From: a plasmid
Sequence record: NZ_LR134454.1
Length of the DNA: 64,000 nt
Strand: one strand, 5' to 3'
Shown one piece after another: positions 2,963-49,227 of the stretch. The notes beneath the pieces are model-generated. The model was not told where the DNA came from. It did not search any database and was given only the letters and a program-made list of their open reading frames with translations. Position 1 is the stretch's first letter; the number at the start of each line of letters is the position of its first letter. The translations under genes were made by a program, and so were the position numbers.

Positions 2963-3052
2963 GGGCCCATTATCGGGCCCCGCGCCCGCAGCGGGGAGGA
3001 ACGTCCCGTTCGCGCCCTCGCTAAATGACTCCTCACCAGTCACAATGGTCAC

Positions 3053-7178: not shown

Positions 7179-7230
7179 GGGCGGTACCCTAGCCCTCCAA
7201 CGAACCCTCCGCGCGGCGAGAGAAGGCCGG

Positions 7231-23272: not shown

Positions 23273-23578
23273 TGCACGGATGTGTTGCTGCGGCGTTGAC
23301 GGGCCGGGGGTGTGCGGGGGCTGCGAATAGTCGGGCGAAAGTTACTGAAATGAATTCTCGTAGTCGATGTAGATGCTTACGAAACTTTGGTGCGCCGCGA
23401 TTGTCGCGCCGCGGATCCCTGGAGCCTGAGTCCGTGAATCCGGTTCTCACCAGGTCGCTCGTTGCAAACCCGCATACGGTGCAACATGTTCTCGTCGGCC
23501 GGTGTCGGCCGCGCCTGCGGGCGCGCGTCGTGGGGGCTCGCGCGGTGCGCGACCGACGCCCGTGACCGTGCACAACGT

Positions 23579-23602
23579 GATCGACAACCGGAATTGTCGA
23601 TC
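23579..23602. promoter_or_regulatory. Perfect inverted repeat GATCGACAA-N6-TTGTCGATC in the intergenic region upstream of the ESX locus
   Basis: Read directly from the sequence. It is about 150 bp upstream of the first ESX-side ORF. The flanking region is relatively AT-rich and also contains direct repeats TTGCAAT(C/G)CGG at about 23631 and 23671. Confidence 0.35.
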
Positions 23603-23756
23603 GCGATCCTGTGGGGTCTGACCTGGTCGTCTTGCAATCGGACAACGGTGGCTTCAAAGAAGTGCAGTTGCAATGCGGGTGGTACATTCTTTTGCGACAA
23701 CGAATTCAGTCGGTACGTATGTGCCGCCTGGCTGGGCAGACGGGAGGGTGGCATTG

Positions 23757-24056
23757 AGTTCCGACAAGGACGCCGGTGCGAACCTCGGCCAGAGCGCCGG
23801 TGCGCGCGCCATCGAGGCGCGCGCGGCGATAGCGACGGCGCAGTTGCGGTCGACCGTGACGTCGATCAGTTCCTCGGTGGGCTGCACCAGCTCGCACGGC
23901 GAGCGGATCGTCGAGACGATCGACGACCTCATCGACGACGTCATGCCCGAACTCGAGGCCGCCGAGGCCCTCACCGCCGGCCGGGGAGCCTCGGGCCCCG
24001 CGTCGCGTCCCTCGGTGTGGGTCGAGGCCCCGTCGACCGCGAGCGCTTCGTCGTGA
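23757..24056 (+). CDS. Small hypothetical protein at the head of the ESX locus
   Basis: Roughly 100-aa ORF. TTG/GTG start with GGGAGG upstream. No recognisable motif. Confidence 0.25.
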   Translation, partial: SSDKDAGANLGQSAGARAIEARAAIATAQLRSTVTSISSSVGCTSSHGERIVETIDDLIDDVMPELEAAEALTAGRGASGPASRPSVWVEAPSTASASS

Positions 24057-24110
24057 CCCCGTCGATCGTCGCGGCGGTGTCGCCGCGCCCGGCTTGAATG
24101 AGGTGTCGAA

Positions 24111-27100: not shown

Positions 27101-27620
27101 CCCCGTCGTGGGGGAGGAGAACATCGTCGGCGTGCTCCGGCCCGGCGCGGTGCTCCCCGGCGGCCGCAGCCGATTCGAGGCGACGGTGTCTCCGGCGCGC
27201 CTGCAGCACATCCGGTCGCTCGACCGCGAGCAGGCCGAGCGGCAGGCGCGCGCCCTGATCCGGGACCTGGAGACGCAGCCGATCGCGCCCGAACACGCCA
27301 TCGGGATCGAGGCCGCGCGCATCGACGCACGGTGCTTCCTCGACGAGCGCGACGAGGTGCCGCCCCCGGTCCTCGACCAATTGCACACCGACGAGCGGGC
27401 CCTGGGGGATGCCCTGAGCCTGGACCGGACGCCGGCCTCGGCCGAGGACCTCACGGCGCCCGCACCGGACGCGGCCCGCTTGCGCGACCGGATGTTGGAG
27501 CGGGCGATCCTCGTCGCCACGCTCGCCGCGGCGTACCACGACATCGAGTCGGCGGTGTACGCCTGGACGTACGCTCGGTTCCTCTCGAGCCAGGATCAGG
27601 ACGCCCCGCAAGCACGATGA
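24111..27620 (+). CDS. Large ESX secretion-associated (Esp-like) protein
   Basis: 1169 aa, GTG start. An N-terminal domain of about 150 aa is followed by roughly 600 aa of acidic/Pro/Ala low-complexity sequence carrying five GF[ML]x[FL]G[RP]xP motifs, then a globular C-terminal domain of about 350 aa. The stop overlaps the eccA start (ATGA). Confidence 0.6.
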   Translation: MIDRPDTPHADVLLEGIWEDEVTPDDLASRALSAAQASSYAFRVASEGTTATAQLGEVDVAEFLESETGKWAQSFIGIVRVGESLVHVSHALGELARSLQQVNLEQSEIVYQVEAEIEAAERQSAQAGVDPADRIAELIAGARARAAEVAEKMVTPETSSETKKPAAGLVSGFMAFGRVPGASAEATERNGRVARNGHARNGYAIRNTRAEQNGRGATNGHDAVNGRAATNGHEAATGQAANGHDTVEPPAIAETNAAAAAQDAFANSADDTAMDPGFMGFGRTPSTPVPRTDEVATESVVADEAVTDSPIEDAAPETVDEPVTDDAAVDDAAADDAAAEENSEADAPVLRNGFLGLGPAPSLGMPADDVAVPALPQPLVNGFMAFGRTPGADQPTIQGPSSGPIPVAAPTQFLPIPTTPAEIVAGDLGATDGLELGSPMTLSGSADGPSPDRAPHGRADAMDDGFLSFGRVPTGGAWGGSGVLPTVPATAGVTPAGVHDADADEPAVEVDDLDEVQDVAEESDDVVETEALDDAVEDTRPDEPADDALSGDAVDDEAVDDVADLDDEAIDDEAIDDEAIDDGPDDVDFADELDTEADELGEPDEPAHDEPDEDVLDDVLDETESDLDDADGTPSEGDADDAAEDVAAEAEPADGSEAEADDTGIVDTSESEPEPEPEPDGAEADEASDDPEVEVDPTEDATAEIEESAADSDDVEVAEADEHTADEHADEQVQETDAVPADSALEKDEQSETTPEATESGQPEPADAPAAAPAAGENKTAFAAPKPVRKSGPVKFSDLLKAANANKVDPAHIAPAVLVASAEMPVATPEPDPEASAADETGPAAAVSDIPADAAEQPEAPAKQAPVLATGPAILGRTEPLVLRKKVSPAVQQVHDAVASILGSLRGGPHGPESGLHWAAGLLVKDLETIMAVTTSDAGWLPPGVVIPAGVRVLWNMPTGYRWASVDDPVRQLIEYAEQEGYTLTAVATTHPSRAYAPVVGEENIVGVLRPGAVLPGGRSRFEATVSPARLQHIRSLDREQAERQARALIRDLETQPIAPEHAIGIEAARIDARCFLDERDEVPPPVLDQLHTDERALGDALSLDRTPASAEDLTAPAPDAARLRDRMLERAILVATLAAAYHDIESAVYAWTYARFLSSQDQDAPQAR

Positions 27621-29551
27621 CGACTTCGAATCCCACTGCCCAGCGGTACTTCTCGCTCGGGCTGCGATCGCTCGCGGCGCGGACAGACACCCGTGAGCCG
27701 GCCCAGGCGTTCCGCCTCGCCGTTGAGGCCGACCCCACGATGTGCGACGCGTGGATCGGCCTGATGGCCGTCGACCGGACCCAGCTCAGTGACCCGTCCG
27801 CCGCGCGCGGACTGCTGAGCTCGGCCCGGAACTTCGGCGCCGAGCTGCGCCGCAACGGCATGGTCGTCGACCCCGCCGAGGGCGCGCTCGGGCTGAAGAT
27901 CCCCGTCCAGATGGGCGTCGTCGAGCTCGGGATGCCCGTCACCGACGTGGTCTACGCCCGCGCCGGCGCCGCGGTGATCCTGGCGCAGACCGGTCATCTC
28001 GCCGAGGCCGCCGAGGAGTTGACCCGGCTTCAGCGCGAGGTGAGTCCGGACTCGCCGGCGCAGCGGAACTACCTGCGCTACCTGTGGATCTGTCTGCTCG
28101 GCCTCGCGCACCGCTGGCCCGAGGTGCTCTCGACGGTCGCCGACAGCCGCGAGCCCCTCTGGGTGTCCGCCGAGACAGACGGCGCCGTCCGCTTCTGGCA
28201 GCTGGGCGTCACCGCGCTGACCGCGCGCGCCCTCGTCGGCACCGGCGACGCCCACCAGGCACTCTCGGCGACCAAGACCGCACTCGCCTCCGAGGACTTC
28301 AAGCTGGTCCAGGCCAGCCTTCTGGTGACGCAGGCCTATGCGCTGCGGGCGACGGGCGAGGAGGAGGCCGCCGCCAAACTGCTCCGCGACGCGCGCGCGT
28401 GGATCTCGGCGCGCGCCGACCTCGACCACGCCGCCGCCGGCGGCGCGCTCGAGGTGGTCACCGCGCAGTCGATGAACACCCGCACCGACCCGTGGGACCC
28501 CGCCTCGGGCACGACGGCGCAGGAGATCGAGCAGCAGAGCCTCGACCGGCAGCGCGACGTGGTTCTCGCCGACGCGTGGCGCGAGCTGGACGCCCTCGTC
28601 GGGAGCCCGGACGTCAAGTCGCAGATCCGCCGGCTGGCCTCGAAGGTCGAGATGGACCGCGAGCGCAAGGAACTCAGCGAGGAGCTCGGCGAGGAGTACA
28701 GCGAGGAGGAGATGCGCCTCTCCGCGATCATCACGGGCCCGCCCGGCACCGGCAAGACCACGGGCGTGCGGATCCTCGCGAAGCTGTACTACGGCCTCGG
28801 CGTGGTCGCCAAGCCCGAGGTGTACGAGCACCAGCCCAGCGACATGATGACCGGCTACGTGGGCCAGGCGGGCATCCGCACCAACAAGCTGGTCGACGAG
28901 TCGCGGGGCGGCCTCTTCTTCCTCGACGAGGCCTACGGACTCGTCGCCGGCGACGGCGAGGACCAGGCGTCCCGGTTCGGCCGGGAGGCGCTCGAGGCGC
29001 TGCTCGCCCGGATCGAGAACGAGGGCGACAAGCCCCTGCGCGACAAGGTCGTCGTGGTCCTCGCGGGCTACGACGACGACATGAACCGCCTCCTCCAAGT
29101 GAACGCCGGTCTCCCGCTGCGCTTCCCGACGCGCATCTCGTTCAGCTCCTTCACCGCGGAGGAACTGGTGGAGATCGCGGAGTCCGTCGCCGCCAAGAGT
29201 CGCGAGCACCTGGGCGTCGGCGTGCGCGGCTACCTGGAGGAGCACAACAAGCGGCTCGCCGAGGTGAGCGCCCTCGATCTCAAGGGGCGGCTCTGCTCCG
29301 GCATCGACCTCATGTCGAACGCCCGGTTCATGCGCACCGTCATCTCGTCCGCGCGCGGCTTCCGCGACTTCCGGGTCAGCGCGATCGACCGTTCGGCGCT
29401 GTCGTCCGAGGAGAAGCGGACGCTGCTGCGGACCCTCGAGCTCGATGACGTGCGCCTGGCCTACGAGGAGACCCTGCGCGTGTCGCCGAACTTCCCGTGG
29501 TCGCAGTGGCACCTCTTGGAGACGAGTTGGGAGGAGGAATCGAATGGCTGA
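27617..29551 (+). CDS. eccA: ESX secretion system ATPase EccA
   Basis: …CDAWIGLMAV… TPR-like N-terminus and CbxX-type AAA+ C-terminus (ITGPPGTGKTTGVRILAKLYYGLGVV). Confidence 0.9.
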   Translation: MTTSNPTAQRYFSLGLRSLAARTDTREPAQAFRLAVEADPTMCDAWIGLMAVDRTQLSDPSAARGLLSSARNFGAELRRNGMVVDPAEGALGLKIPVQMGVVELGMPVTDVVYARAGAAVILAQTGHLAEAAEELTRLQREVSPDSPAQRNYLRYLWICLLGLAHRWPEVLSTVADSREPLWVSAETDGAVRFWQLGVTALTARALVGTGDAHQALSATKTALASEDFKLVQASLLVTQAYALRATGEEEAAAKLLRDARAWISARADLDHAAAGGALEVVTAQSMNTRTDPWDPASGTTAQEIEQQSLDRQRDVVLADAWRELDALVGSPDVKSQIRRLASKVEMDRERKELSEELGEEYSEEEMRLSAIITGPPGTGKTTGVRILAKLYYGLGVVAKPEVYEHQPSDMMTGYVGQAGIRTNKLVDESRGGLFFLDEAYGLVAGDGEDQASRFGREALEALLARIENEGDKPLRDKVVVVLAGYDDDMNRLLQVNAGLPLRFPTRISFSSFTAEELVEIAESVAAKSREHLGVGVRGYLEEHNKRLAEVSALDLKGRLCSGIDLMSNARFMRTVISSARGFRDFRVSAIDRSALSSEEKRTLLRTLELDDVRLAYEETLRVSPNFPWSQWHLLETSWEEESNG

Positions 29552-31139
29552 GACTCCGGACCCGTCGAATCCGAAATCGGGTCTGCAAGAGCGGGTCCGC
29601 GGATTCCGCCTGACCTCGAAGTACCAGAAGTCGGGCGAGGCCTATCTGCAGCGGCGCAACGAGGAGGCACTGGTCCGCCGCGACACGCGCTGGATCGACG
29701 ACGTCAAGAAGTTCCAGGGATCGCCGCTGTACATCGGTCTGGCCGTCGGCCTGGTGGTGATGCTCGGGTGCGTGATCGCCGCCGTGATCTTCCCGGCGGG
29801 CAAGGTCGGCGACGGCGACATCATCCAGGACAGCCAGACCGGCGCCCTGTACGTCAAGGTCGGCGACGCACTCAGCCCGATTCCCAACGTGGTCTCCGGC
29901 CAGCTCATCATCGGCTCGCCCGCGAAGCCGGTGCTGGCGAAGTCGGGTGAGATCGAGAAGCTCCCCCGTGGCCCGATGGTGGGTATCCCGTACGCCCCCA
30001 CGGTGATCCGCAACTCCACGAGCCGGCTGTCGCAGTGGGCGGTATGCGACACCACCGCCACCGGCTCGGCGGTGCCGCTCGACCCGACGACGGGTCTGCC
30101 GACCACCGCGACCTCCGCGGTGAAGGTCACCGTCGTCGGCGGCGCGCTCACGCCCGCCGAGGGCACGGACGAACTGACCGGTGATCGCGCCCGCGTCGTG
30201 GCGTTCGACAACCAGACCTGGCTCGTCTACTCGGACGACGGGGTGGTGGCCCGCTCGCGGCTCGACCTGGGCAACTCCGCGATCCGCGAGGCGTTGGGCA
30301 TCTCCATCGACCAGCGCGTGATCCCGATGTCGACGGGCCTGTTCAACGCGCTCGCCGCGCGCGAGCCGATCGACGTTCCGCAGATCACGGATCTCGGTAA
30401 GCCCGTGCGCTTCCCCAACACCGAGAAGCTGCTCATCGGCACGACGCTGCGCGTCGCGACCGTCGACGGGGGCTGGACCTACTACGTGGTGGCCGCCGAC
30501 GGCATCCAGCAGATCAGCCAGACCGCCGCGGCGATCCTGCAGACCGTCTCGCCCGTGAAGAGCGGCGTCGTCGAGACGGAGGCGTCGAAGGCGAACCAGT
30601 GGCCCAAGGTGGGCGGACGGATCGCCGTCGACCACCTGCCGACGGGCAAAGTGCGGATCGAGGACGCCACCAGCGATCCCGTGACCTGCATGACGTGGTC
30701 GCACGACGGTGACGCGCCGACCGCCGAACAGAAGGTGCTGGTCGCGGGCACGCTGCCGCTCACCACGGAGCAGAGCGCCGCCCGGATCGCACTGATCGGC
30801 GCGCCGGGATCGGCGGGCACCATCGCCGACGACGTGTATCTGCCGGCGAACAGCGGGCGCTACGTCTACGCCACCGGCTCCGCGAAGGACTCGCGTGAGC
30901 ACAGCGGCGAGTTCTGGATCGCCGACACCGGCATCCGGTACGGCATCGACGACCAGGGCTCGAACGAGCCGGGCTCGTCCGCGAAGGCGCTCGGGCTGAG
31001 CAACCCGGTGCCCGCGCCGTGGACGATCATCAGCCTGTTCGCGCAGGGCCCGACGCTGTCGCGGGCCAGCGCCTCCATCAAGCACGACGGTGGCGCGCAG
31101 GACCCCGTCGTCGCGAAGTTCGACCCGAAGGGGAAGTAG
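29544..31139 (+). CDS. eccB: ESX secretion system protein EccB
   Basis: …FRLTSKYQKSGEAYLQRRNEEALVRRDTRWIDDV… followed by a single TM helix. GGAGGAGGAA RBS. Overlaps the eccA stop by 8 nt. Confidence 0.9.
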   Translation: MAETPDPSNPKSGLQERVRGFRLTSKYQKSGEAYLQRRNEEALVRRDTRWIDDVKKFQGSPLYIGLAVGLVVMLGCVIAAVIFPAGKVGDGDIIQDSQTGALYVKVGDALSPIPNVVSGQLIIGSPAKPVLAKSGEIEKLPRGPMVGIPYAPTVIRNSTSRLSQWAVCDTTATGSAVPLDPTTGLPTTATSAVKVTVVGGALTPAEGTDELTGDRARVVAFDNQTWLVYSDDGVVARSRLDLGNSAIREALGISIDQRVIPMSTGLFNALAAREPIDVPQITDLGKPVRFPNTEKLLIGTTLRVATVDGGWTYYVVAADGIQQISQTAAAILQTVSPVKSGVVETEASKANQWPKVGGRIAVDHLPTGKVRIEDATSDPVTCMTWSHDGDAPTAEQKVLVAGTLPLTTEQSAARIALIGAPGSAGTIADDVYLPANSGRYVYATGSAKDSREHSGEFWIADTGIRYGIDDQGSNEPGSSAKALGLSNPVPAPWTIISLFAQGPTLSRASASIKHDGGAQDPVVAKFDPKGK

Positions 31140-34100
31140 TGAGTAGGCAGGTCTTCGAGCCCCCGCTCCACCCGAAGAAGGAGCCCCGGGTCGTCAAGAA
31201 GGAGGTGGAGGTCCGCACGCCGGACACCATCGACGAGGTCGACCCTCCGGGCAAGTGGCGCACGGTGATGATGCCCGTCATCATGGTGGTCGCCGTGCTC
31301 GGCATGCTGTTCATGATGATCCGCATGAACCGGGGCTTCAACCCGGTCATGCTGCTCATGCCGATGATGCTGTTGTTCGGCATGTTCGCGTACATGGGCG
31401 GTGGGCCCGGCGGCAGCGGCAGCAAGTCCAAGGCGCAGCTGCTGCACGACCGCAAGCAGGCCAGCCGCTCGATCGGCGCCTCCCGCGAGAAGGCGCTCTC
31501 CCGTGGGCGCAACTACTTCGACGCGCTCGCCCATGCCTACCCCGATCCCTCCGTCGCGGCGTCGCTCGTCGGAACCGAGCGGATGTGGGAGGTGAACGGC
31601 GGCGACTCCGAGCGCAAGACCCGGTTCACCGCAGCGCGGTACGGCCGCGGCCGCATCGTGCCGAAGGCGAAGCTGCTCACTCCGGAGGCGCCCGACGGCG
31701 AGTTCCTCGACCCCGTGCAGTGGACCGAGACCGTGAAGTTCCTGCACACCCACTCGACCATCGCGGACATGCCGCTGGCCCTGACCCTGCGCAACCTGCC
31801 GGTGCTCGGCGTGGGCGGCGACGCCGAACGATCGGCGGGCATGGTGCGCGCCATGCTCAACCACCTCGCCATCACGCACGGACCCGACCGGCTGCGCGTC
31901 GCGGTCGTCGCGGACACGCCCGACGGCGGCCGATGGGAGTACCTGAAATGGCTTCCGCAGGTGCAGCATCCGTCGCTGATCGACGCGCTCGGCTCACGCC
32001 GCATGATCTACGGCAACTGGACCGAGTTCCTCGACGAGCTCGCCGGCAGCGAGGAGCAGCCCGCCGCCGAGGCCGATCGCATCGTCGACTACTCGCGGCC
32101 CTTCACCACCGAGTCCGAGGTGAACGGGCGCACCCGCCATACCGTCGTGATCGTGGAATCCGCTGAGCGCGCGCGGATGACGGACCAGGCGATCGCCTCG
32201 CTCGCCGACGTCACGTGGATCCTGATGTCGCCGCCCGACGGCGTGATCGACTCCTTCCCGCACGCGGTCCTGCTCGACGTGGACCGGGCGGGCATCGTCA
32301 CCCGCTGGGACTCGGACCTCCCGCTGGAGGCGCCCAAGGAGATCGCGCGGGCCGACTACCTCGACCTCGTCGACGCGCACACCACCGCCCGCAAGCTCGC
32401 GCGCTGGGAGCTGGAGACCACGGCCTCGCTGCTGTCCAAGGAGCGCAAGGACACCGGGCGCGATTGGGCCGACCTCGTGCAGGTCGACGACCCCGGCGCC
32501 ATCGACGTGGTCGACTTCTGGCAGCGCATCAAGCGGTTCGACGATCCGCGGCGCCTCAACTTCCCGATCGGCTTCGCGCCGGACGGGACCCGCATCTTCC
32601 TCAACATGCGCGAGGCGAGCCAGGGCGGCACCGGTCCGCACGGCGAGATGATCGGCACGTCGGGATCGGGCAAGTCGGAGTTCCTCCGCTGCCTCGTGTT
32701 GGACGCCTGCCTGTTCCACCCGCCGTCGATGCTCAACCTGCTGCTCGTGGACTTCAAGGGCGGCGCGACCTATCAGGGCATGGAGGACATCCCGCACGTC
32801 GCGGCGGTGGTCACCAACCTCGAGAAGTCCGAGAGCATGGTCGACCGCATGATGGAGGTCATCACCGGCGAGCTCAAGCGGCGCCAGCAGCTCTTCGACA
32901 GCGCCGCCGCCCGGTACCCGTCGTTCAACATCATCGGCCTGACCGAGTACGAGAAGGCCCGCGAGTCCGGTCACTGCCCCGACCTCGAGCCCATGCCGGC
33001 GCTGCTGGTGCTCATCGACGAGTACACCGAGCTCCTCGAGGCCAAGCCGGAATTCGTCAACATCTTCAGCCAGATCGGCCGCGTCGGTCGGTCCGTGGGC
33101 GTGCACCTGCTGCTCGCCTCGCAGAACGCGGAGATGGCGCGCTCGCGCGGCCTGGAGTCGAACATCCACTACCACATCGCGCTTCGCACCGGCACCGCCG
33201 GCGACTCGCGCGCGGTGATCGGCGTCCCCGATGCCAAGAACCTTCCCGGCAAGCCCGGCAACGGCCTCATCAAGACGCTCCACGAGGACGACCTGATCCG
33301 GTTCTACGCCGGTTTCACGGGCAAGCCCTACTTCGCGCCGGAGACGGCGCCGGAGCCCGTCGTGCGAGAGGTCGTGCAGCCCACCGCCGACGACCTCTCC
33401 TCCCGCGGCTTCACCGCGCGCCGGGTCGACATCCCGGACCTCGAGGCCGAGATCGTCGAGGACGACGAGATCGTGCGCACCGAGGAGGAACTGCTCGCCG
33501 CGCCCACCGTCTTCACCGTGGTCAAGGAGCTGCTCACGTCGGCGCCGGCGCGCCCCGCGTACAAGCCGTGGCTCCCGGAGCTCACGTCGACCACGCTGGA
33601 CGTCCTGGCACCGTCGCTCGCGGCGGACGCGTGGGTCGCGCCGAAGGTGACCACCCCCGCCACGCTGAAGCTGCCCTTCGGCGTCTTCGACGACCCGGCC
33701 AAGCACCAGCAGCCGGTGTGGGAGCTGGACCTCTCGGGCGGCCAGGGCAACGTGCTCATCTACGGCGCACCGCAGAAGGGCAAGACGACCGCCGCGATGA
33801 CGCTGGTGACCTCGTTGGCGCTCACCCACTCGCCCGAGCAGGTGCAGTTCTTCGTCGTGGACTACACCGGCGGCGGCTGGATGCGGCTCGAGGACCTGCC
33901 GCACGTGTCCCGGATCGCGACCCGGTCCGAGGAGGACGCGATCAACCGGATCGTCTCCCAGATGTCCGACCTGATCGACCAGCGCGTCAAGCTCTTCCGC
34001 AAGTACCGGGTCAACTCGATGGCCGAGTACCGGCGGCTGCGCAGCGACCCCGGCGCGGAGGTCATCACCGAGGACGCCTTCGGTGACGTCTTCATCGTGA

Positions 34101-35359
34101 TCGACGGCTTCGACGCCGCCGTCACCGAGGGCGGGGTCTTCGAGGACAAGGTGGCCGTGCTCGAGGCGCTCGCGTCGGGCGCCCTGAACTACGGCATCCA
34201 CTTCGTCATCACCACGGCCCGCAACACCGTGCTCCGCGGCCTCGCGAGCCACATGCACACGATCATCGAGGGCCGCGTCTCGACGGCCAGCTACGACATG
34301 TCCGTCGTGAACTCGCAGCGGAACAAGGCGGTGCCCGACAAGGCCGGCCACGTCATCACCACGGACCGGGAGCTGCTCGCCCTCGTCGCGCTGCCCCGCG
34401 CCGACGGCGACGTCTCGCCCGAGACGCTCAGCGTCGGCATCGAGGAGGTCGTGGATCGCATCCGCCGCGCCAACACGTCCGGCGCGGAGGCGCCGAAGCT
34501 GCTGGCGCTGCCCGAATCGGTCCTGCAGAGCGACCTGTTCTCGGTGCTGCCCGCCGAGGCCAGTGCCCGCGAGCGCGTCCGGCTGCCGTTCGGCGTCCGC
34601 GAGACCGACGGCGGACCCGCGATGGCGGACTTCGGCCGCGAGGCGCACATGTACGTGGTCGGCGAGAGCGGGTCCGGTCGGTCCGCGTTCGTGCACACCC
34701 TCATCGAGGCGATCAGCCGCCGGTACCCGTCCATCGACGACGGTGCCATCGCCCTCCTCGACCCCAAGCGCGTGCACCGCGGTGCCTTCGCCCCCAACCC
34801 GAAGAACCTCGGGCTGCACGGCTCCGACCTCTACGATTTCCTGCGCCGCTGGCAGGACAAGCTCGTGGACTGGATGGGCGAGGGGGAGACCGACCCGGAC
34901 AAGGTGACCTATCGCCGGGTGCCCGACACCGCCGACAGCGCCGCCCTCGCGCGCCGCGACTGGTGGACCGGGCCCGAGGTCTTCCTCATCATCGACGATT
35001 ACGACGCCGTCGTCGCCCGCGGGGACCGCACCAACCCGCTCACCCAGACGGTGAAGCTGATGAACGACGGTGTCATTCGCGGCTTCCACGTCATCGTGGT
35101 GCTCAACGACTCCGAGTACCTCTACAAGGCCAGCTCGGACCCGCTGATCCAGTACCTCGACACCCACAGTTCGATGGCGCTGGCCATGTCCGCGGACAAG
35201 TTCAACGTGAACATCGCAGGTGAACGCGGCCAGCGCTTCGGCATCCCCGGCCGCGGCCGATTCCACCCCGGACGCGGGGCGCCGTCGGACATCGTCCAGG
35301 TCGCCTGGAACGGCGTACGCAGGGACGAAGCGGAGTCCGACGAGGAGGTTTGGGGTTGA
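31139..35359 (+). CDS. eccC: ESX secretion system FtsK/SpoIIIE-type ATPase EccC as a single fused polypeptide
   Basis: Two N-terminal TM helices and three P-loop domains (GSGKSE, GKTT, GSGRS). GTG start shares one nt with the eccB stop. Confidence 0.9.
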   Translation: MSRQVFEPPLHPKKEPRVVKKEVEVRTPDTIDEVDPPGKWRTVMMPVIMVVAVLGMLFMMIRMNRGFNPVMLLMPMMLLFGMFAYMGGGPGGSGSKSKAQLLHDRKQASRSIGASREKALSRGRNYFDALAHAYPDPSVAASLVGTERMWEVNGGDSERKTRFTAARYGRGRIVPKAKLLTPEAPDGEFLDPVQWTETVKFLHTHSTIADMPLALTLRNLPVLGVGGDAERSAGMVRAMLNHLAITHGPDRLRVAVVADTPDGGRWEYLKWLPQVQHPSLIDALGSRRMIYGNWTEFLDELAGSEEQPAAEADRIVDYSRPFTTESEVNGRTRHTVVIVESAERARMTDQAIASLADVTWILMSPPDGVIDSFPHAVLLDVDRAGIVTRWDSDLPLEAPKEIARADYLDLVDAHTTARKLARWELETTASLLSKERKDTGRDWADLVQVDDPGAIDVVDFWQRIKRFDDPRRLNFPIGFAPDGTRIFLNMREASQGGTGPHGEMIGTSGSGKSEFLRCLVLDACLFHPPSMLNLLLVDFKGGATYQGMEDIPHVAAVVTNLEKSESMVDRMMEVITGELKRRQQLFDSAAARYPSFNIIGLTEYEKARESGHCPDLEPMPALLVLIDEYTELLEAKPEFVNIFSQIGRVGRSVGVHLLLASQNAEMARSRGLESNIHYHIALRTGTAGDSRAVIGVPDAKNLPGKPGNGLIKTLHEDDLIRFYAGFTGKPYFAPETAPEPVVREVVQPTADDLSSRGFTARRVDIPDLEAEIVEDDEIVRTEEELLAAPTVFTVVKELLTSAPARPAYKPWLPELTSTTLDVLAPSLAADAWVAPKVTTPATLKLPFGVFDDPAKHQQPVWELDLSGGQGNVLIYGAPQKGKTTAAMTLVTSLALTHSPEQVQFFVVDYTGGGWMRLEDLPHVSRIATRSEEDAINRIVSQMSDLIDQRVKLFRKYRVNSMAEYRRLRSDPGAEVITEDAFGDVFIVIDGFDAAVTEGGVFEDKVAVLEALASGALNYGIHFVITTARNTVLRGLASHMHTIIEGRVSTASYDMSVVNSQRNKAVPDKAGHVITTDRELLALVALPRADGDVSPETLSVGIEEVVDRIRRANTSGAEAPKLLALPESVLQSDLFSVLPAEASARERVRLPFGVRETDGGPAMADFGREAHMYVVGESGSGRSAFVHTLIEAISRRYPSIDDGAIALLDPKRVHRGAFAPNPKNLGLHGSDLYDFLRRWQDKLVDWMGEGETDPDKVTYRRVPDTADSAALARRDWWTGPEVFLIIDDYDAVVARGDRTNPLTQTVKLMNDGVIRGFHVIVVLNDSEYLYKASSDPLIQYLDTHSSMALAMSADKFNVNIAGERGQRFGIPGRGRFHPGRGAPSDIVQVAWNGVRRDEAESDEEVWG

Positions 35360-35441
35360 GAAATTCGGACAACCAGGGATTGACGAAATTTGACAATTCT
35401 GTTTTAGTTGCAACTTGAAAATCAAGTAAAGGGGATAGCAG
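35360..35441. promoter_or_regulatory. AT-rich promoter-like island between eccC and PE
   Basis: …ttgacgaaatttgacaattctgttttagttgcaacttgaaaatcaagtaaagggg… sits in an otherwise 70%-GC context. It contains TTGACA-like hexamers and an RBS. Confidence 0.4.
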
Positions 35442-35729
35442 GTGGGCCTGAACGTGGCGCCTATTCAACTCTTGGCAGGAACCAACGAGGTCATGGCGAA
35501 TGTCGCCACCACCTCGGGCTTGATCGGTGGCGCGGCCGGCGCCATCGGCGCCGTCGTACCGGCGGGCATCGACGACGTCTCGCTGCTGGTCTCGGCCAGT
35601 TCCGCGGCGCACGCGGCGAACTTCTTGGCCACCTCGGTCGTCGATCACGCCGAGGTCGCGCAGTACGCGGTGAGCCTCTCGGCGGTGGCCTCGACGTACA
35701 TCATGGCCGACAACGCCGTGCAGTTCTGA
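35442..35729 (+). CDS. PE family protein
   Basis: 95 aa, GTG start. PE35-like core (…AVVPAGIDDVSLLVSASSAAHAANFL…). Confidence 0.7.
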   Translation: MGLNVAPIQLLAGTNEVMANVATTSGLIGGAAGAIGAVVPAGIDDVSLLVSASSAAHAANFLATSVVDHAEVAQYAVSLSAVASTYIMADNAVQF

Positions 35730-35742
35730 CGAGCGTGACGTC

Positions 35743-37119
35743 GTGACTTTCCCAGCGCTTCCCCCCGAGGTGAACGTGGGGCGCCTCATGTCGGGCGCCG
35801 GCCCCGCGCCGGCGACGGCCGCGGCCGCCGCGTGGGCCTCGGTCGCGGCCTCCGTCAGCGCGCGGTCGGTCTTCCTGCAGTCGCTACTGCCGCGCCTCGC
35901 CGCGTCCTGGCAGGCGCCGGAGACGGCGTTGATGACACGCAACGTCGCGATCTACCTCGCGCACAACGAGGCGCTCCGGACGCAGGCGCTGCTCGCGTCC
36001 ACCCGGCACACCAAGCAGGCGGCCGACTACTCGGCCGCGCTGGCGGGCATGGCCCAACTGCCCGAGATCGCGACGAACCACGTGACGCACGCCGTCCTGC
36101 AGGCGACCAACTTCCTGGGCGTCAACACCGCGGCGATCGCCGCGAACGAGGCGCAGTACACGGCGATGTGGGCGCAGAACGCCGCGATGATGCTGACCTA
36201 CCTCGCGAACTCGACGGCGAACATGACGTTCGAACCCTTCATCCCGCCGAAGCCCATGGCCACCGCGATCGGCGTGCCGATCCCCGCCGCAGCCGCGGGC
36301 GCCGCCTCGGTCGGCGACGCGGTGGTGACCAAGATGACCCTCGCCGCACAGGGCGCGCAGGCCGTCGCCAGCATGCTGTGGATGCGCACCGCCGGCGGCG
36401 TGCTCTCCACCACGAAGCTCGGCCAGACTCTGCTCGTTCAGGCGCAGCGGTTCGAGCAGGCCGCGTCCAACGCCGCCACCGCGGCGTCCCAGTCGCGCGA
36501 GAACAGCCTCGCGCGCCCGACGACGGGGCAACAGCTCGGCCAGAGCCTCGTCCAACAGATCGGCGGGGCCGGCGGGGTGGCCGCCGGGGTCGGCGGCGGC
36601 GTGGTCGGAGTGGCCCTGGCCGGCGGCGGGCAGGCCCTGCAGACCGGGACCGGCGTGGGCACGGCCGTGACCGGCGGCGGCGTGGTCTACCAGCCGATGA
36701 GCGCACTGCTCGCGAACGTCAACCCCGAGAACCGCACCGGCACCGTCGGCTACTTCGGCGCCCGCCCGGGCTCGCCCGCCCTGGAGCGGATGTCCCGCGG
36801 CGAGCCCGCGCAGCGCTCCGCGTCCGCGCTCCGCGTCGAGCCCGGGACGGCCGCGCTGCCGCAGGTCGCCGCCCCCGCGAACTGGGCGACCGACGGCCTG
36901 ACGGTCGCGCCGCCGCCCCCGCCGGTCCCGCGCGTCGCCGCCGAGCCGCTGCGCCCGGTCCTCCCGACCGGGACGAGTGCGCCGGTCACGCGGTCGAAGG
37001 GCAAGCAGCGCGAGCGCATCGTCGTGCCCGATACCGCGGCGATGCCCATCTACCAGGACTCGGAGCCCGTGTACGAGTCCGTTCCCGTCGACGTCCCGTC
37101 GAGTGGGGAGGGGCGCTGA
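35743..37119 (+). CDS. PPE family protein
   Basis: VTFPALPPEVNVGRLMSGAGP…, with a Gly/Ala-rich region and a Pro-rich C-terminus. GTG start. Confidence 0.85.
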   Translation: MTFPALPPEVNVGRLMSGAGPAPATAAAAAWASVAASVSARSVFLQSLLPRLAASWQAPETALMTRNVAIYLAHNEALRTQALLASTRHTKQAADYSAALAGMAQLPEIATNHVTHAVLQATNFLGVNTAAIAANEAQYTAMWAQNAAMMLTYLANSTANMTFEPFIPPKPMATAIGVPIPAAAAGAASVGDAVVTKMTLAAQGAQAVASMLWMRTAGGVLSTTKLGQTLLVQAQRFEQAASNAATAASQSRENSLARPTTGQQLGQSLVQQIGGAGGVAAGVGGGVVGVALAGGGQALQTGTGVGTAVTGGGVVYQPMSALLANVNPENRTGTVGYFGARPGSPALERMSRGEPAQRSASALRVEPGTAALPQVAAPANWATDGLTVAPPPPPVPRVAAEPLRPVLPTGTSAPVTRSKGKQRERIVVPDTAAMPIYQDSEPVYESVPVDVPSSGEGR

Positions 37120-37172
37120 TCCCCACCATCCGCTCGGCCCACTACGACCACCTTTGAACTGGAGGAACCCTC

Positions 37173-37478
37173 ATGCCCCCGCAGATCTACGATCTCAACA
37201 CCGTGTCGCACGCGGCCGGTACCGCGAAGACCCACGACGTCGCTGCGACGACCCTCGCCAACATCAAGTTCGTCCGCACCACGGCGGAGGCCTACCGCGC
37301 CGCCAACAACGGTGACACCGCGAACAAGGCCACCGCGCACATGGAGGAGCTCATCGCCGTGTGCAACGCCGAGCAGCAGAAGCTCGAGGCAGTGGCCGAG
37401 GCGCTGGGCCGCAACGGCGGCCTCATCACCAGCACCGACGGCGACGCCGGCGGACTGTTCACCGGCTACGTCGTCTAG
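37173..37478 (+). CDS. WXG100-family protein, EsxB (CFP-10)-like partner; non-canonical with no Trp
   Basis: About 100 aa of helical-hairpin size, lying immediately 5' of the EsxA-like gene. GGAGGA RBS. Confidence 0.55.
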   Translation: MPPQIYDLNTVSHAAGTAKTHDVAATTLANIKFVRTTAEAYRAANNGDTANKATAHMEELIAVCNAEQQKLEAVAEALGRNGGLITSTDGDAGGLFTGYVV

Positions 37479-37507
37479 ACCGCAGATCACACCGAAGGGG
37501 AACCAGC

Positions 37508-37813
37508 ATGACTTCCGCTGAGCGCATCACAGTCACCTATGCCAGCTACGACGCGACCTCGGCCGGTCTCGCCAAGGCCTCGGCCATCGCCGATGCGAAC
37601 ATCGCCGAGCTGACCGCCAACAACACCGCGAACCTCAACGCGTGCAACTGGGTGGGCGTCGACCAGGAGAGCTACCAGCACGTCCACGAGATCTGCCTGA
37701 AGGCCAACGAGAACCTGGCCATGGCGATCCGTAAGACCGGCGTGAACCTGCAGACGGCTGCCGCGATCCACCAGGCCGGCCAGGCGCAGGCCGCGGGCCT
37801 CTACGGGATCTAG
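37508..37813 (+). CDS. WXG100-family protein, EsxA (ESAT-6)-like
   Basis: …NACNWVGVDQESYQHV… is a WxG motif. 101 aa. Confidence 0.7.
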   Translation: MTSAERITVTYASYDATSAGLAKASAIADANIAELTANNTANLNACNWVGVDQESYQHVHEICLKANENLAMAIRKTGVNLQTAAAIHQAGQAQAAGLYGI

Positions 37814-37827
37814 AACGACGAGGACGA

Positions 37828-37859
37828 GGCCCGGCCACCGCGCGTGCGGAGGCCGGGCC
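37828..37859 (+). terminator. Stem-loop downstream of the esxA-like gene; possible partial terminator or processing site
   Basis: GGCCCGGCC (37828-37836), a 14-nt loop, then GGCCGGGCC (37851-37859), a 9-bp perfect stem. No clear U-tract. Confidence 0.3.
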
Positions 37860-37880
37860 GCGTCGGAAGAGGAGGGGCGC

Positions 37881-45831: not shown

Positions 45832-47910
45832 GTGTTCGTGGCGTCGGAACCCGGTGAATCGATCGCGGGGTACGTGATCGAGTCGGTCCTCGGTACCGGA
45901 GGCATGGGCACGGTGTACCGCGTGCGGCACCGCACGCTGCCGCGGTCCGTCGCGCTCAAGGTACTGCAGAGCCAGCTCTCCGCCGATCCGTCGGTGCGCG
46001 CGCGGTTCGACCGCGAGGCCGACCTGATCGCCGGGCTCAAGCACCCGCACATCGTCGACGTCTACGACCGCGGCGAGTCCGACGGGCACCTCTGGATCGC
46101 GATGGAGCTGGTGGAGGGCGGCAACCTCGCCGAGAGCGTGCAGCGGGAGGGGCCGTTCAGCCTGGACCGCACCGTCGGCGTCGTCGAGCAGGTCGCCGAC
46201 GCCCTCGACTACGCCCACCAGCACGGCATCCTCCACCGCGACGTCAAGCCCGCCAACTTCCTCGTCGACCGCGGCCGCCGCGGCGAACAGGTCAAGCTCG
46301 CCGACTTCGGGATCGGCGCCGCCCAGACCGACGTCGGGCAGAACACGCAGGCGGGCACCGTCGTCGGCACGCTCGCCTACACCGCGCCCGAGGCGCTGCT
46401 CGGGCACCCCGTCGACCACCGCGCCGACGTGTACTCGCTCGCCTGCGCCACCGTGGTGCTGCTGACCGGAGCGCCGCCGTTCGCCACCACAATCTCGGGC
46501 CAGCTCATGCTGGCGCACATCAGCCAGAACCCGCCCAGCATCCGGCTCAAGCGGCCCGACCTGTCGCCGGAGATCGACCACGTCCTCGCCCGGGCGATGG
46601 CGAAGAACCCCGCGGACCGGTTCAACAGTGCGGGCGAGTTCGCCGATGCGCTGGCCGCGGCCGCGCGCCGCATGTCGGGCGCCGCGGGTATCGCGCCGCC
46701 CACGGCGCCGCAGGGCGTCAATTGGCAGGGGACGCCGTCGAATCCGGCGCTCGCCACCGGATACAACCAGCCCCTGCCCGGGCAGCAGAGCCTGCCGCCC
46801 GGCGCGCCGACGGGGCTGCTCGGCCCCGTCGGGCAGATGGGCCCGCCGCGCGGCCCCGGAGGACCGGCCGGTCCGGGTGGCCCGATGGGGCCGAGCTCGC
46901 CGTCGATGCCGGTGCAGGGCGGGCCGGCGTCGTCGAACCGGAAGAAGCTGCTGATCGGCGGAGCCGCCGCGCTCGTCGTGATCCTGGCGGCGGTCCTGGG
47001 CATCGTCGTCTTCGGCGGCGGTGGCGATGACGACGGCCCTCCCGCGCTCGACGCGTGGAGCGCCCGCACCGTCACGGACGTCAACGGCACCACGGAGCTC
47101 ACCGACCGGCCGCAGCGCATCGTCGCCCTCGGCGCGGGTGACGCCGAGCTCGTCGCCGCGCTCGGCTTCGAGGTGGTCGCCGGCGCGAACGGCCCGAAAT
47201 CCGAACTGCCGTCGTGGGTGCCCGCGCTGTCGGGGGTGACCAGCGCCGGCACGTCGACCAACCCGGACACGTCCGTGATCCAGAAGGCCAAGCCCGACCT
47301 GATCCTCGACACCGACCCGGACGCGGCCGACAAGGTCAAGGAACTCAAGTCGCTCGCGGGCGGCCGCGCGATCGCGGTCTCCGAGGAGGGGAAATCCGGC
47401 TGGACGTGGCAGCAGCAGCTCGCCTTCATCGCGGAGGCGCTCGGCGCGAAGGACCGCGCCGCGGCCGTGACGAAGACCTACGAGGGCCGCATCACCGCCC
47501 TGCGATCCGCGCACCCCGAGTTCTCGGGCAAGAAGATCGATGTCGTCCACTACGACGGCACGTCGACGAAACTCGCCTCGCGCTCGTCGAACGCGCTCCA
47601 ACTGCTGGGACTGCTGGGCTTCTCGACGCAGACCCCCGTCGACGGCAGCGGTTCCTGGCTGAACCTGGCGTCCGGCGACATCTACAAGGCGGTCAACTCG
47701 AGCGAGGTGGACCGGACGGTCGTCGCGCGCACCGACCCGGCGGGCGGCAACGGCGGCTTCGACGGCGTCCCGTCGTCGTTGACCTACGGCGTGCCGATCA
47801 TCATCCTGGACAAGACGAACGGCGTGGACGCGCTCCTCTACGGCGGGCCGCTCGCCATCGACACGATCGAGCAGTCGGTGGTGCCCGCCCTGACGAAGGG
47901 AGTCAAGTGA
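45832..47910 (+). CDS. Ser/Thr protein kinase with an extracellular ABC-type periplasmic-binding-protein (siderophore/B12 cluster-A-like) domain
   Basis: Hanks kinase motifs (GGMGTVYRV…HRDVKPANFLV…DFGIG) and a TM helix. The ectodomain …PQRIVALGAGDAELVAALGFEVVAG… is Peripla_BP_2-like. Confidence 0.85.
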   Translation: MFVASEPGESIAGYVIESVLGTGGMGTVYRVRHRTLPRSVALKVLQSQLSADPSVRARFDREADLIAGLKHPHIVDVYDRGESDGHLWIAMELVEGGNLAESVQREGPFSLDRTVGVVEQVADALDYAHQHGILHRDVKPANFLVDRGRRGEQVKLADFGIGAAQTDVGQNTQAGTVVGTLAYTAPEALLGHPVDHRADVYSLACATVVLLTGAPPFATTISGQLMLAHISQNPPSIRLKRPDLSPEIDHVLARAMAKNPADRFNSAGEFADALAAAARRMSGAAGIAPPTAPQGVNWQGTPSNPALATGYNQPLPGQQSLPPGAPTGLLGPVGQMGPPRGPGGPAGPGGPMGPSSPSMPVQGGPASSNRKKLLIGGAAALVVILAAVLGIVVFGGGGDDDGPPALDAWSARTVTDVNGTTELTDRPQRIVALGAGDAELVAALGFEVVAGANGPKSELPSWVPALSGVTSAGTSTNPDTSVIQKAKPDLILDTDPDAADKVKELKSLAGGRAIAVSEEGKSGWTWQQQLAFIAEALGAKDRAAAVTKTYEGRITALRSAHPEFSGKKIDVVHYDGTSTKLASRSSNALQLLGLLGFSTQTPVDGSGSWLNLASGDIYKAVNSSEVDRTVVARTDPAGGNGGFDGVPSSLTYGVPIIILDKTNGVDALLYGGPLAIDTIEQSVVPALTKGVK

Positions 47911-48548
47911 TGGCCGAGCAGACCCTGACCGCGGAGGACCTCGCGCGCTACGCCGCGGCGCTCGCCGAGGGCAAGAAGCCGCTGGTCTACCTCGTCGAGG
48001 GCGTCCCGAGCCTGGGGCTGGACGCCGGGGCGTCCGCCCGGGTCGTCGAGGTCGACGGTGCCGTCGTCACCGTCAAGCCGACGGGTGTCGACGACCAGTT
48101 GCCCTACGACGCACGGGAACTGCGCGCCACCAAGCAGCCGAAGCCGGTGAAGCGGGCGCCGAAGCAGGCGGCCGCGAAGCCCGCGCCCAAGCCCGCCGCG
48201 AACACCGCACCGGCGGCGAAGGCGGCGGCCGGGGCGCCGGCCCGCGCGGCCCGGTCCGTCGCGATCACGGTGTACGTGGGCGCCGACAACACCGCTTCGC
48301 TCAAGGTGACGCGAAACGCCCAGAAACCCGCGGGTGCGCAGGAGATCCCGTTGCCCGCCCTGCACAAGGCGCTGGCCGGGCTCGGCGACAAGGAGGCGCA
48401 GGGCGCCGTCGACGAGGTGCTTTCCGCGGCCCGCGACGCCGCCGCCGACCGCGTCGCGGCGCTGCAGGCCGAGCTCGCCGCAGCGAAGAAGTCGCTCGCG
48501 ACGCTCGACCGCGCGAAGCGGGGGAGCGGCTCGGCCCGCGCCCGTTAG
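47910..48548 (+). CDS. Hypothetical protein with a basic AKP/PKP-rich linker, start-overlapping the kinase stop
   Basis: MAEQTLTAEDLARYAAALAEGKK…KQPKPVKRAPKQAAAKPAPKPAANTAPAAKAAAG… The ATG overlaps the kinase stop. Confidence 0.5.
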   Translation: MAEQTLTAEDLARYAAALAEGKKPLVYLVEGVPSLGLDAGASARVVEVDGAVVTVKPTGVDDQLPYDARELRATKQPKPVKRAPKQAAAKPAPKPAANTAPAAKAAAGAPARAARSVAITVYVGADNTASLKVTRNAQKPAGAQEIPLPALHKALAGLGDKEAQGAVDEVLSAARDAAADRVAALQAELAAAKKSLATLDRAKRGSGSARAR

Positions 48549-48570: not shown

Positions 48571-49227
48571 ATGGCACTCGACTTCCCGCACCTGGACCTG
48601 TCCGCCGACGAGGTACTGACCTCCACCCGGTCGGTGCGCAAGCGCCTCGACCTCGAGAAGCCCGTGCCGCTCGAGGTGATCACCGACGCGCTCGAGGTGG
48701 CGCTGCAGGCACCGTCGGGCAGCAACGCGCAGGGCTGGCACTGGATCGTGCTCACCGATCCCGAGCCCAAGAAGATCGTCGCCGAGTACTACCGCAAGTC
48801 CTACTTCGCCTACGCCGAGGCGGGCGCCGCCGCGCGCGCCGCGAAGCCGCCGAAGGATCTCGAGACCGCCGAGAAGGTGGCCTCCAGCGCCACCTACCTC
48901 GCCGAGGTCATGGAGCAGGTCCCCGCGCTCGTCATCGGCGCGATCCACGTGCCCGGCGGCGAACTGCCGCAGGGCAACCAGGCCGGGCTGTGGGGCTCGC
49001 TGCTCCCCGCGGCGTGGAGCCTCGCACTCGCGCTGCGCGAGCGCGGCCTCGGGTCCGCGTGGACGACGCTGCACCTCGAGTACGAGCGCGAGGTCGCGGA
49101 GGCGCTGGGCATCCCCGCCACCGTCCGGCAGGGCGTGCTGCTGCCCGTCGCCTACACCAAGGGCACCGACTTCAAGCCCGCCAAGCGCGCCCCGCTGGAG
49201 ACGGTCCTGCACGTCAACGGCTGGTAG
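48571..49227 (+). CDS. Nitroreductase family protein
   Basis: …RSVRKRLDLEKPVPLEVITDALEVALQAPSGSNAQGWHWIVL…. Confidence 0.8.
   Translation: MALDFPHLDLSADEVLTSTRSVRKRLDLEKPVPLEVITDALEVALQAPSGSNAQGWHWIVLTDPEPKKIVAEYYRKSYFAYAEAGAAARAAKPPKDLETAEKVASSATYLAEVMEQVPALVIGAIHVPGGELPQGNQAGLWGSLLPAAWSLALALRERGLGSAWTTLHLEYEREVAEALGIPATVRQGVLLPVAYTKGTDFKPAKRAPLETVLHVNGW

Follow-up and report, generated by a model that had tools for sequence, protein, structure and literature searches.

In mycobacteria and corynebacteria, an extracytoplasmic solute-binding protein feeds a Ser/Thr kinase pathway in the GlnH-GlnX-PknG system, which is divided among three proteins, a binding protein of the amino-acid-binding class, a membrane transducer and a soluble kinase. 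PknF (Rv1746) of M. tuberculosis, the partner of which is the FHA-ABC transporter Rv1747, has a short extracellular segment only and carries no solute-binding protein (SBP) domain. Here we describe a gene for a 692-residue Ser/Thr kinase with an SBP-like ectodomain, located directly 3' of an ESX locus in a 64,000-nucleotide stretch of sequence record NZ_LR134454.1 (the window); unlike in GlnH-GlnX-PknG, sensor and kinase are here part of one polypeptide. This architecture is uncommon but already described, as PknQ (MUP011) of the Mycobacterium ulcerans plasmid pMUM001. On the basis of colinear homology to MUP011, a shared ectodomain signature and the kinase clade, we assign the window gene to the PknQ family, as a chromosomal member from the Tsukamurella lineage. 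With a probability of roughly 0.65, we read it as a chromosomal PknQ-family sensor kinase that has its own upstream region and that came to lie next to ESX genes through the gain or loss of a block of genes.

PknQ was characterized in 2014 (Arora et al., PMC4238996) as a 660-residue kinase of the PknF/PknI clade that has a transmembrane region and, outside the cell, a 'FepB-like' periplasmic-binding domain. The kinase depends on Mn2+, has T166, S170 and T174 among its autophosphorylation sites, interacts with MupFHA, the neighboring FHA protein, and with MupDivIVA, and is inhibited in vitro by Fe3+ and hemin, as is its isolated kinase domain (PMC4238996). The window kinase aligns with PknQ at 38% identity over 694 columns (E 8e-105), colinear from residue 8 to the last. 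Both proteins have the same domain order, and the motif RTDxAAGxGGFxGLP is common to both ectodomains. The activation-loop residues T172, T176 and T180 align with T166, S170 and T174 of PknQ, and three of four activation-loop phosphosites are conserved as threonine in the window kinase. The identity between the ectodomains is only about 31%, and the window gene is chromosomal, the syntenic Tsukamurella paurometabola locus lying on a 4.7-Mb record. It is without neighboring MupFHA-type and DivIVA genes and without a DUF7373 gene directly upstream, whereas it is translationally coupled to a DUF6319 gene and placed after an ESX locus.

The protein is composed of a kinase domain, a Pro/Gly-rich linker, one transmembrane helix and an SBP-fold ectodomain; coordinates of all features are given in Table 1. 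The catalytic motifs, as read from the translation, are intact (K43, E62, H135-R136-D137, N142, D158-F159-G160). In sequence comparison with the PDB, the closest solved structure to the kinase domain was 7NAA (235 bits), which we take to be the kinase domain of M. tuberculosis PknF, followed by PknE (203 bits), PknB (195 bits) and PknI (186 bits), and the domain is accordingly classed by sequence with the PknF/PknI clade. An NCBIfam match to StpK7/MSMEG_1200 was discarded as kinase-domain similarity only; StpK7 is a member of a BREX-like island and irrelevant here. The hydrophobic helix L373-F394 is preceded by RKK and followed by DDD, so that by the positive-inside rule the kinase domain is predicted to be cytoplasmic and the SBP-like domain extracytoplasmic. 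The start codon of the open reading frame (ORF) is a GTG at 45832; the true start may instead be a second GTG two codons downstream (45838), which is better spaced relative to the Shine-Dalgarno sequence GGAGG.

Table 1. Positions in the 64,000-nucleotide window of the kinase gene, its domains and the neighboring features.
Feature	Position	Strand	Basis
Gene of receptor Ser/Thr kinase, assigned to PknQ family, 692 aa	45832..47910	+	ORF; Pfam Pkinase and Peripla_BP_2; 38% identity to PknQ/MUP011
Hanks kinase domain, residues 14-265	45871..46626	+	Pfam Pkinase, E 5e-51
Single transmembrane helix, L373-F394	46948..47013	+	translation; positive-inside rule
Class-III (cluster A) SBP fold, predicted extracytoplasmic	47014..47907	+	Pfam PF01497; AlphaFold2; Foldseek; alignments
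DUF6319-family protein gene, 212 aa	47910..48548	+	homology; AlphaFold2; start-stop overlap
Nitroreductase-family gene, 22 nt after DUF6319	48571..49227	+	Pfam PF00881, E 8e-20
Conserved region upstream of kinase	45762..45831	+	alignment of 12 Tsukamurella sequences
eccE, last ESX gene, 739 aa	43552..45771	+	Pfam EccE, E 1.9e-23
DUF7373 lipoprotein gene	22061..23272	-	Pfam PF24088 and PF24092; ~22.5 kb upstream of kinase
~23.7-kb block between ROK gene and kinase (DUF7373, 1169-aa protein, EccB to EccE)	22061..45771	.	comparison with T. soli and PLM1

For the ectodomain, Pfam Peripla_BP_2 (PF01497) was matched at residues 430-619 with 39.6 bits against a gathering score of 27.5, and NCBIfam gave weak matches to FepB, FhuD and FecB across the C-terminal part of the protein. 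The AlphaFold2 model of residues 395-692 (mean predicted local distance difference test score (pLDDT) 88, predicted template-modeling score (pTM) 0.88) consists of two alpha/beta lobes and a long connecting helix. Searched against the PDB with Foldseek, it retrieved siderophore and heme binding proteins only (E 1e-15 to 1e-12), namely YfiY, PiaA, Rv0265c/MhuP, FecB/Rv3044, SirA, FhuD2, CeuE and FepB; TM-scores to the solved SBP structures were 0.6-0.74 at about 17% identity. The two-lobe fold with its long connecting helix and the Pfam match above threshold are features shared with the class-III SBPs of ATP-binding cassette (ABC) importers. Unlike these, which are free lipoproteins, the ectodomain follows a transmembrane helix in a fusion with a kinase, has no FecCD permease or ATPase genes nearby, and has several conserved aromatics replaced.

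To determine the distribution of the fusion, 1.84 billion cluster representatives were searched exhaustively with HMMER, the ectodomain serving as query. Below E 1e-18, the hits were nearly all proteins of 550-700 residues with the match at the C-terminus, or fragments of such proteins, and ordinary siderophore SBPs scored below the kinase-fused ones. A kinase domain was present in 12 representatives, and three further clusters hold full-length kinase members, which gives about 15 fusion clusters at 50% identity among the best 150 matches. Where a source was named, all were from Mycobacteriales (Tsukamurella soli, Mycobacteroides abscessus, a Mycobacterium sp. metagenome-assembled genome (MAG), Mycolicibacterium insubricum and Gordonia amarae). 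By contrast, word-indexed searches, run with the ectodomain and with an alignment of the family, had returned only free SBPs and a 341-residue fragment from Tsukamurella sp. PLM1; the idea that the fusion is unique, which they would have suggested, was overturned by the exhaustive search and by tblastn against the PLSDB plasmids, in which the full-length protein matched mycobacterial plasmids with both of its domains. The ectodomain alone matched 22 plasmids at E<=1e-12, all from Mycobacterium or Mycolicibacterium, and the matched genes are annotated as Ser/Thr kinase (19), ABC transporter substrate-binding protein (2) or hypothetical (1). Plasmids with PknQ-family genes include pMUM001 (M. 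ulcerans Agy99), pMUM002 (M. liflandii), pRAW (M. marinum E11) and others from M. avium and M. intracellulare. A first-pass annotation, made from the letters of the window, had proposed a Hanks-type kinase followed by a transmembrane helix and a cluster-A SBP ectodomain and had called this combination uncommon; the profile searches (Pfam and NCBIfam), the topology and the structural comparison agree with the former, in particular by placing the ectodomain in an SBP family above the gathering score, and the count of about 15 clusters with the latter.

The region upstream of the kinase was compared in 12 Tsukamurella sequences, including three without an adjacent eccE. About 65 nt are conserved in all 12, whatever gene lies upstream, and contain the elements CCAAC(C/T)T...TTAAG...CAACCT, an invariant GGTAGATT and a GGAGCGGAGG Shine-Dalgarno sequence. 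Within GGTAGATT, TAGATT (45795-45800) is -10-like and fits the mycobacterial TANNNT pattern. The motif occurs once in the window, and the final codons and the stop of eccE fall within the conserved region. Since the region is conserved independently of its surroundings, we conclude that the kinase probably carries its own regulatory region; read-through from the ESX genes into the kinase is possible but not required.

Scanning the GTDB species genomes with an alignment of three Tsukamurella sequences located the kinase gene in 10 Tsukamurella genomes. T. paurometabola, T. ocularis, T. conjunctivitidis, NPDC003166, strain 1534 and a MAG share the order EccD-MycP-EccE-kinase-DUF6319-nitroreductase; for strains M9C and CIP111612T, the contig starts inside eccE. 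In T. soli, a MarR/ROK regulator gene is followed after about 120 nt by the kinase, with no ESX genes between them (ROK stop at L021 1230, kinase ATG at 1347; compared stretch L021 37-1353). Tsukamurella sp. PLM1 has the order ABC-F, ROK, DUF7373-like gene on the plus strand and kinase (L001 6336-8970), which is the arrangement typical of the PknQ family. In T. asaccharolytica, two minus-strand genes separate eccE and kinase. These two inserted genes (L013 625-2342) are paralogous and resemble the N-terminal ~150 residues of the 1169-residue protein described below, at 39% identity. In the window, the ABC-F and ROK genes lie at 18765-22053 (MarR/ROK regulator 20743-22053), followed by the DUF7373 gene on the minus strand, the gene of the 1169-residue protein and the ESX locus. 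The block between ROK gene and kinase is thus missing at this locus in T. soli and PLM1 and present in the T. paurometabola group; no direct repeats flank it. The position of the kinase 3' of eccE therefore appears to be the result of lineage-specific gain or loss of a block, and not a conserved functional operon.

The window has a G+C content of 72%. Its proteins have their matches in Tsukamurella, including a Logan contig at 100% identity and T. paurometabola LR131273.1 at 84-97%. The ESX locus upstream of the kinase is complete, with EccB, EccC, PE/PPE, Esx, EspG, a 586-residue protein, EccD, MycP and EccE. The MycP is closest to MycP1, EccB is about equally close to EccB3 and EccB5, and EspG is marginally closer to EspG3, so that by sequence these proteins are not clearly of ESX-3 type. 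For T. paurometabola, an ESX-4EVOL and an ancestral ESX-1-like cluster have been listed but no ESX-3, and such clusters have been argued to have entered genomes from plasmids (Newton-Foot et al., 2016). The latter view fits the block-wise presence and absence observed here.

Within the ESX block, EccE is unusually long; the Pfam EccE domain matches residues 201-296 only, and approximately the last 200 residues form a Pro/Gln/Ala-rich low-complexity tail whose final codons enter the conserved region upstream of the kinase. The 586-residue protein between espG and eccD (38781-40541, plus strand) has no Pfam or NCBIfam match; it occupies the EspI/Rv3888c-like position of ESX-2-type gene orders. 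At the head of the block, the 1169-residue protein (24111-27617, plus strand) matches DUF5632 weakly, at 23.9 bits and thus under the gathering score, and matches nothing in NCBIfam. The ~1.6 kb between its gene and eccB (27620-29268) contain shadow-like ORFs only, none of which has the codon-position G+C pattern typical of the other genes; the stretch could be non-coding or could represent a gene that is frameshifted or atypical. The single 454-residue ORF tested upstream of eccB, the place of eccA in ESX-3 loci, had no Pfam match.

The context of the family was examined at 13 loci outside Tsukamurella, with 9-14 kb of flanking sequence each where the contig allowed. At 11 of them, the kinase is directly preceded on its own strand by one or two DUF7373 genes (PF24088/PF24092), which often overlap its start or end within ~10 nt of it (L010 8676-9932; L012 7557-9991; L023 8799-10004; L025 8071-9273; L028 641-2104; L029 7260-8421; L030 6460-8978; L031 7794-8945; L032 7710-8990; L033 10287-12865; L034 7585-8826). 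The copy on pMUM001 is N-terminally truncated or split. DUF7373 proteins have lipoprotein-type N-termini, as read from the translations, and no match in PDB or NCBIfam; we found no literature on the family, and the pMUM001 copy is not discussed in the PknQ paper. At eight of the 13 loci, a gene for a MupFHA-type protein, with FHA and MSMEG_6518_N domains, is located within ~5 kb of the kinase. Other frequent neighbors are PknH_C 'sensor domain' lipoproteins, Rv1747-like FHA-ABC genes and plasmid partition or transposase genes. One locus (L024) has ESX core genes next to the kinase; the other 12 have none within 9-14 kb.

Locus L024 (93-20412), on a Logan contig of ERR650995, has a distant PknQ-family kinase between two sets of ESX genes. 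Upstream of this kinase are a CbiA-like gene, EccD, MycP, EccE, EccA and a PhdYeFM/YoeB toxin-antitoxin pair; on its other side, EccE, EccB and EccD on mixed strands are accompanied by a second kinase, which has a PknH_C domain. The contig resembles a plasmid carrying several ESX loci. On an M. rufum plasmid (L032 11083-12699), a 538-residue gene annotated as 'WXG100 family type VII secretion target' directly follows the PknQ-like kinase.

The short distance between eccE and kinase, 60 nt from the eccE stop (45769-45771) to the kinase GTG and thus as the first-pass annotation had measured it, had been taken there as a sign of co-regulation with, or regulation of, the ESX system, by analogy with the metal-responsive ESX-3. 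In such a case, the kinase would sense iron or siderophores, would be co-transcribed with the ESX operon and regulate ESX as in ESX-3, and the downstream protein would be a DNA-binding effector. Consistent with this are the adjacency itself, free of a terminator, and its recurrence in the Tsukamurella lineages listed above, together with the kinase after EccD-MycP-EccE-EccA in L024, the M. rufum copy before a WXG100-family gene, the siderophore/heme binding-protein fold and the effect of Fe3+ and hemin on PknQ in vitro. However, the kinase-DUF6319 unit is present without the ESX block in T. soli and PLM1, two opposite-strand genes intervene in T. asaccharolytica, all three keep the same region upstream of the kinase, and 12 of the 13 loci outside Tsukamurella are devoid of ESX core genes within 9-14 kb. 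Moreover, scans of the window for IdeR and Zur boxes gave none within three mismatches of the consensus sequences, the ESX locus is not clearly of ESX-3 type, Fe3+ and hemin act on PknQ independently of its ectodomain, and the protein encoded downstream resembles neither HU nor Lsr2 (see below). Of the proposed co-regulation, the 60-nt adjacency thus stands and the functional link is weak, and the analogy with ESX-3 and iron is not sustained; we consider a kinase of this kind rather improbable.

As to the ligand, the fold of the modeled ectodomain suggests a metal chelate. Alignments with the nearest free SBPs, which are from Geodermatophilaceae and Streptomyces and 26-34% identical, revealed two features of the kinase-linked group. 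The loop motif RTDxxAGxGGxxGLP in the C-lobe is invariant among kinase-linked ectodomains and is their own, and the aromatic positions GW[GS]DAE, DWLxFGG, GFGAY and PLWQ of the free SBPs are replaced. Because several conserved aromatics are missing, the binding site is probably remodeled relative to that of free siderophore SBPs. This remodeled pocket and the near-universal DUF7373 neighbor suggest a protein partner instead.

The ectodomain would then be a protein-interaction module, its partner either an extracytoplasmic lipoprotein, with DUF7373 as prime candidate, or a component of the cell envelope, and the kinase would report on that partner. The directly upstream DUF7373 genes at the 11 loci and in PLM1, the lipoprotein-type N-termini of their products, and the exchange of the free-SBP aromatics for an invariant loop motif all argue for it. 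Against this, the sole DUF7373 gene of the window is ~22.5 kb away on the opposite strand and T. soli has none at the locus, gene neighborhood is no demonstration of physical interaction, and the cleft-forming two-lobe fold is fully kept and is compatible with a small ligand too. We regard an interaction module of this type as unlikely, while giving it some weight.

For a PknQ-family sensor kinase, as we read the window gene, a mechanism may be proposed as follows. No genes for FecCD-type permeases or ABC ATPases were found among the scanned window genes or in the related loci, for which reason the SBP-like domain would no longer serve a transporter and would have a role as sensor instead of delivering cargo. 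Binding of an extracytoplasmic ligand or partner would alter the oligomeric state or conformation of the kinase, for example by dimerization, and thereby the trans-autophosphorylation of T172, T176 and T180. Phosphorylation of targets in the cytoplasm would follow, and in Tsukamurella the co-translated DUF6319 protein is the most obvious candidate for such a target; in the mycobacterial relatives, an FHA protein and a DivIVA protein are the known or likely partners.

The gene of this DUF6319 protein overlaps that of the kinase, the TGA of the kinase (47908-47910) sharing one base with the following ATG (47910-47912) in the sequence TGATG, as had been noted at first pass; this ATG is preceded, at a distance of 8 nt, by a GAAGGGAG Shine-Dalgarno sequence. 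The junction is a TGATG/ATGA overlap in eight sequences (the window and seven genomes), abutting in two, and a 29-nt gap in T. soli. Homologues across Tsukamurella are 62-100% identical. More distant ones from Rhodococcus, Actinosynnema and Kibdelosporangium (29-44% identity) carry Pfam DUF6319 (PF19844), and the window protein is homologous to PF19844-carrying proteins at E 5e-29 and 3e-27; the PF19844 model itself is matched by 15 of 22 aligned homologues, the window protein falling short of E 0.01. The AlphaFold2 model (pLDDT 79.5) has a conserved N-terminal helix and small beta-barrel, a linker, a three-stranded sheet and a long C-terminal helix. The Lys/Ala/Pro-rich linker (approximately residues 82-110) is disordered and varies widely in length and sequence between species. 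In the fold search, only weak KOW/SH3-like matches were obtained (Spt5 KOW2, E 0.025), none reaching E 0.001. The first-pass annotation had likened the linker to HU/Lsr2-type DNA-binding tails; as no HU or Lsr2 match was found in Pfam, NCBIfam or the fold search, this comparison gives way to a DUF6319-family protein with a KOW/SH3-like N-terminal domain and a variable disordered linker. The protein has no similarity to MupDivIVA. Literature searches on DUF6319 and on Peripla_BP_2 together with a kinase gave no results, and a broader one on kinases and binding proteins gave nothing relevant; PknQ came to light only through the plasmid tblastn. From synteny, the protein is a reasonable candidate for a partner or substrate of the kinase, in Tsukamurella only.

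The nitroreductase gene is probably the third gene of the unit; among the Tsukamurella species examined, T. soli is the only one in which it does not come after DUF6319. The window nitroreductase has no similarity to the gene downstream of DUF6319 in Rhodococcus.

Full-length kinase ORFs of 673-698 residues were found in ten species. Ratios of non-synonymous to synonymous substitutions (dN/dS), calculated pairwise against the window sequence after Nei-Gojobori, were 0.07-0.12 for the kinase domain and 0.15-0.38 for the ectodomain in nine of ten comparisons each, and 0.14-0.27 for DUF6319 in eight of nine. The remaining comparison was in each case that with T. soli (0.20, 0.76 and 0.34, respectively), the most distant one, whose values are probably affected by saturation of synonymous sites because its ectodomain is only 50% identical. 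On the closer comparisons, all three are under purifying selection. In PLM1 (AP025688.1), the kinase is split within its low-complexity linker into two overlapping ORFs of 366 and 341 residues. Since the same assembly also breaks a thiolase (154 and 282 residues) and a TetR regulator (in two frames), the split is probably an artifact; these breaks and a ROK gene fused to the DUF7373-like ORF (L001/L019) suggest frameshift errors in the assembly.

These data also bear on whether the gene could be a decaying, non-functional remnant of a plasmid-derived PknQ module that was integrated into the chromosome together with ESX genes. The family is typically found on plasmids or islands, the usual FHA and DUF7373 partners are not adjacent here, and the PLM1 copy is annotated as two ORFs. 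Full-length ORFs in ten species with intact catalytic motifs, dN/dS well below 1 in every domain except in the comparison with T. soli, and a PLM1 frameshift that is probably a sequencing artifact make a remnant highly improbable.

A number of observations weigh against a PknQ-family sensor kinase with a regulatory region of its own, or against parts of that reading. Concerning the regulatory region, the putative promoter is derived from conservation; a consensus promoter and terminator scan of the eccE-kinase junction found nothing, there is no terminator-like structure between the two genes, and the RNA fold of the junction is not significant (z -0.5). The adjacency of eccE and kinase is retained in at least eight Tsukamurella lineages. 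Given this adjacency, the lack of a terminator and locus L024 (EccD-MycP-EccE-EccA, toxin-antitoxin pair, then the kinase), some functional connection to ESX is possible. Concerning the sensor, a metal-chelate ligand is not assured, as the aromatics of the nearest free siderophore SBPs are missing, and the effect of Fe3+ and hemin on PknQ is uninformative about the ectodomain, because the isolated kinase domain is inhibited too. Concerning the family context, a same-strand DUF7373 gene directly upstream is absent from the window and present in PLM1, the window's DUF7373 gene being the remote one mentioned above; no MupFHA-type (FHA/MSMEG_6518_N) homologue was found in the window at E<=1e-8, and none of the Rv1747-like FHA-ABC genes that lie near several PknQ-family loci was found in it. 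Likewise, the window does not show the kinase locus with FHA and DivIVA genes, which characterizes the surroundings of the plasmid copies and does not belong to the protein itself. Concerning the downstream gene, DUF6319 was not found at any of the 13 loci outside Tsukamurella and is not beside a kinase in Rhodococcus or Actinosynnema; it is kinase-linked in Tsukamurella only, and its putative role as a substrate therefore rests on synteny in one genus.

It is conceivable, if doubtful, that a PknQ-type kinase was rewired in the T. paurometabola group, where it would have lost its FHA and DUF7373 neighbors, gained the co-translated DUF6319 protein as a new partner and, given its place 3' of a chromosomal ESX locus, would couple an extracytoplasmic cue, sensed by the SBP-like domain, to the expression or secretion of ESX. 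In a wider version, PknQ-family ectodomains and DUF7373 lipoproteins may form a two-part extracytoplasmic sensor on ESX-bearing mycobacterial plasmids.

Elsewhere in the window, LigD (587-3313, minus strand; primase-polymerase, phosphoesterase and ligase domains) and Ku (3053-3862, plus strand) form a divergent pair for non-homologous end joining; as the longest LigD ORF overlaps the start of Ku, the true start of LigD is probably further downstream. A 633-residue protein (5421-7319, minus strand) combines a condensation domain of the non-ribosomal peptide synthetase type with a C-terminal GNAT acetyltransferase domain. The 265-residue ORF at 17863-18657 (minus strand) has a VbhA antitoxin domain (residues 4-48) and a Fic/DOC domain and appears to be a fused toxin-antitoxin-type Fic protein.

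To our knowledge, PknQ-type kinases are the only bacterial Hanks kinases with a siderophore-type binding-protein fold as outer domain. Among the mycobacterial plasmids that carry them are some of medical relevance, such as pMUM001 and pMUM002, the mycolactone plasmids. The locus is a cautionary case for the ESX field, in which adjacency to eccE appears to stem from block gain or loss at a recombination-prone junction and is no proof of a regulatory link. Useful by-products of the analysis are the DUF7373-PknQ gene pair, the Tsukamurella-specific coupling to DUF6319 and a precisely bounded ESX block. DUF7373 is a strongly conserved partner gene that has received no attention in published work on PknQ, and the conserved chromosomal copy in Tsukamurella offers a second, plasmid-independent setting in which the PknQ family may be studied.

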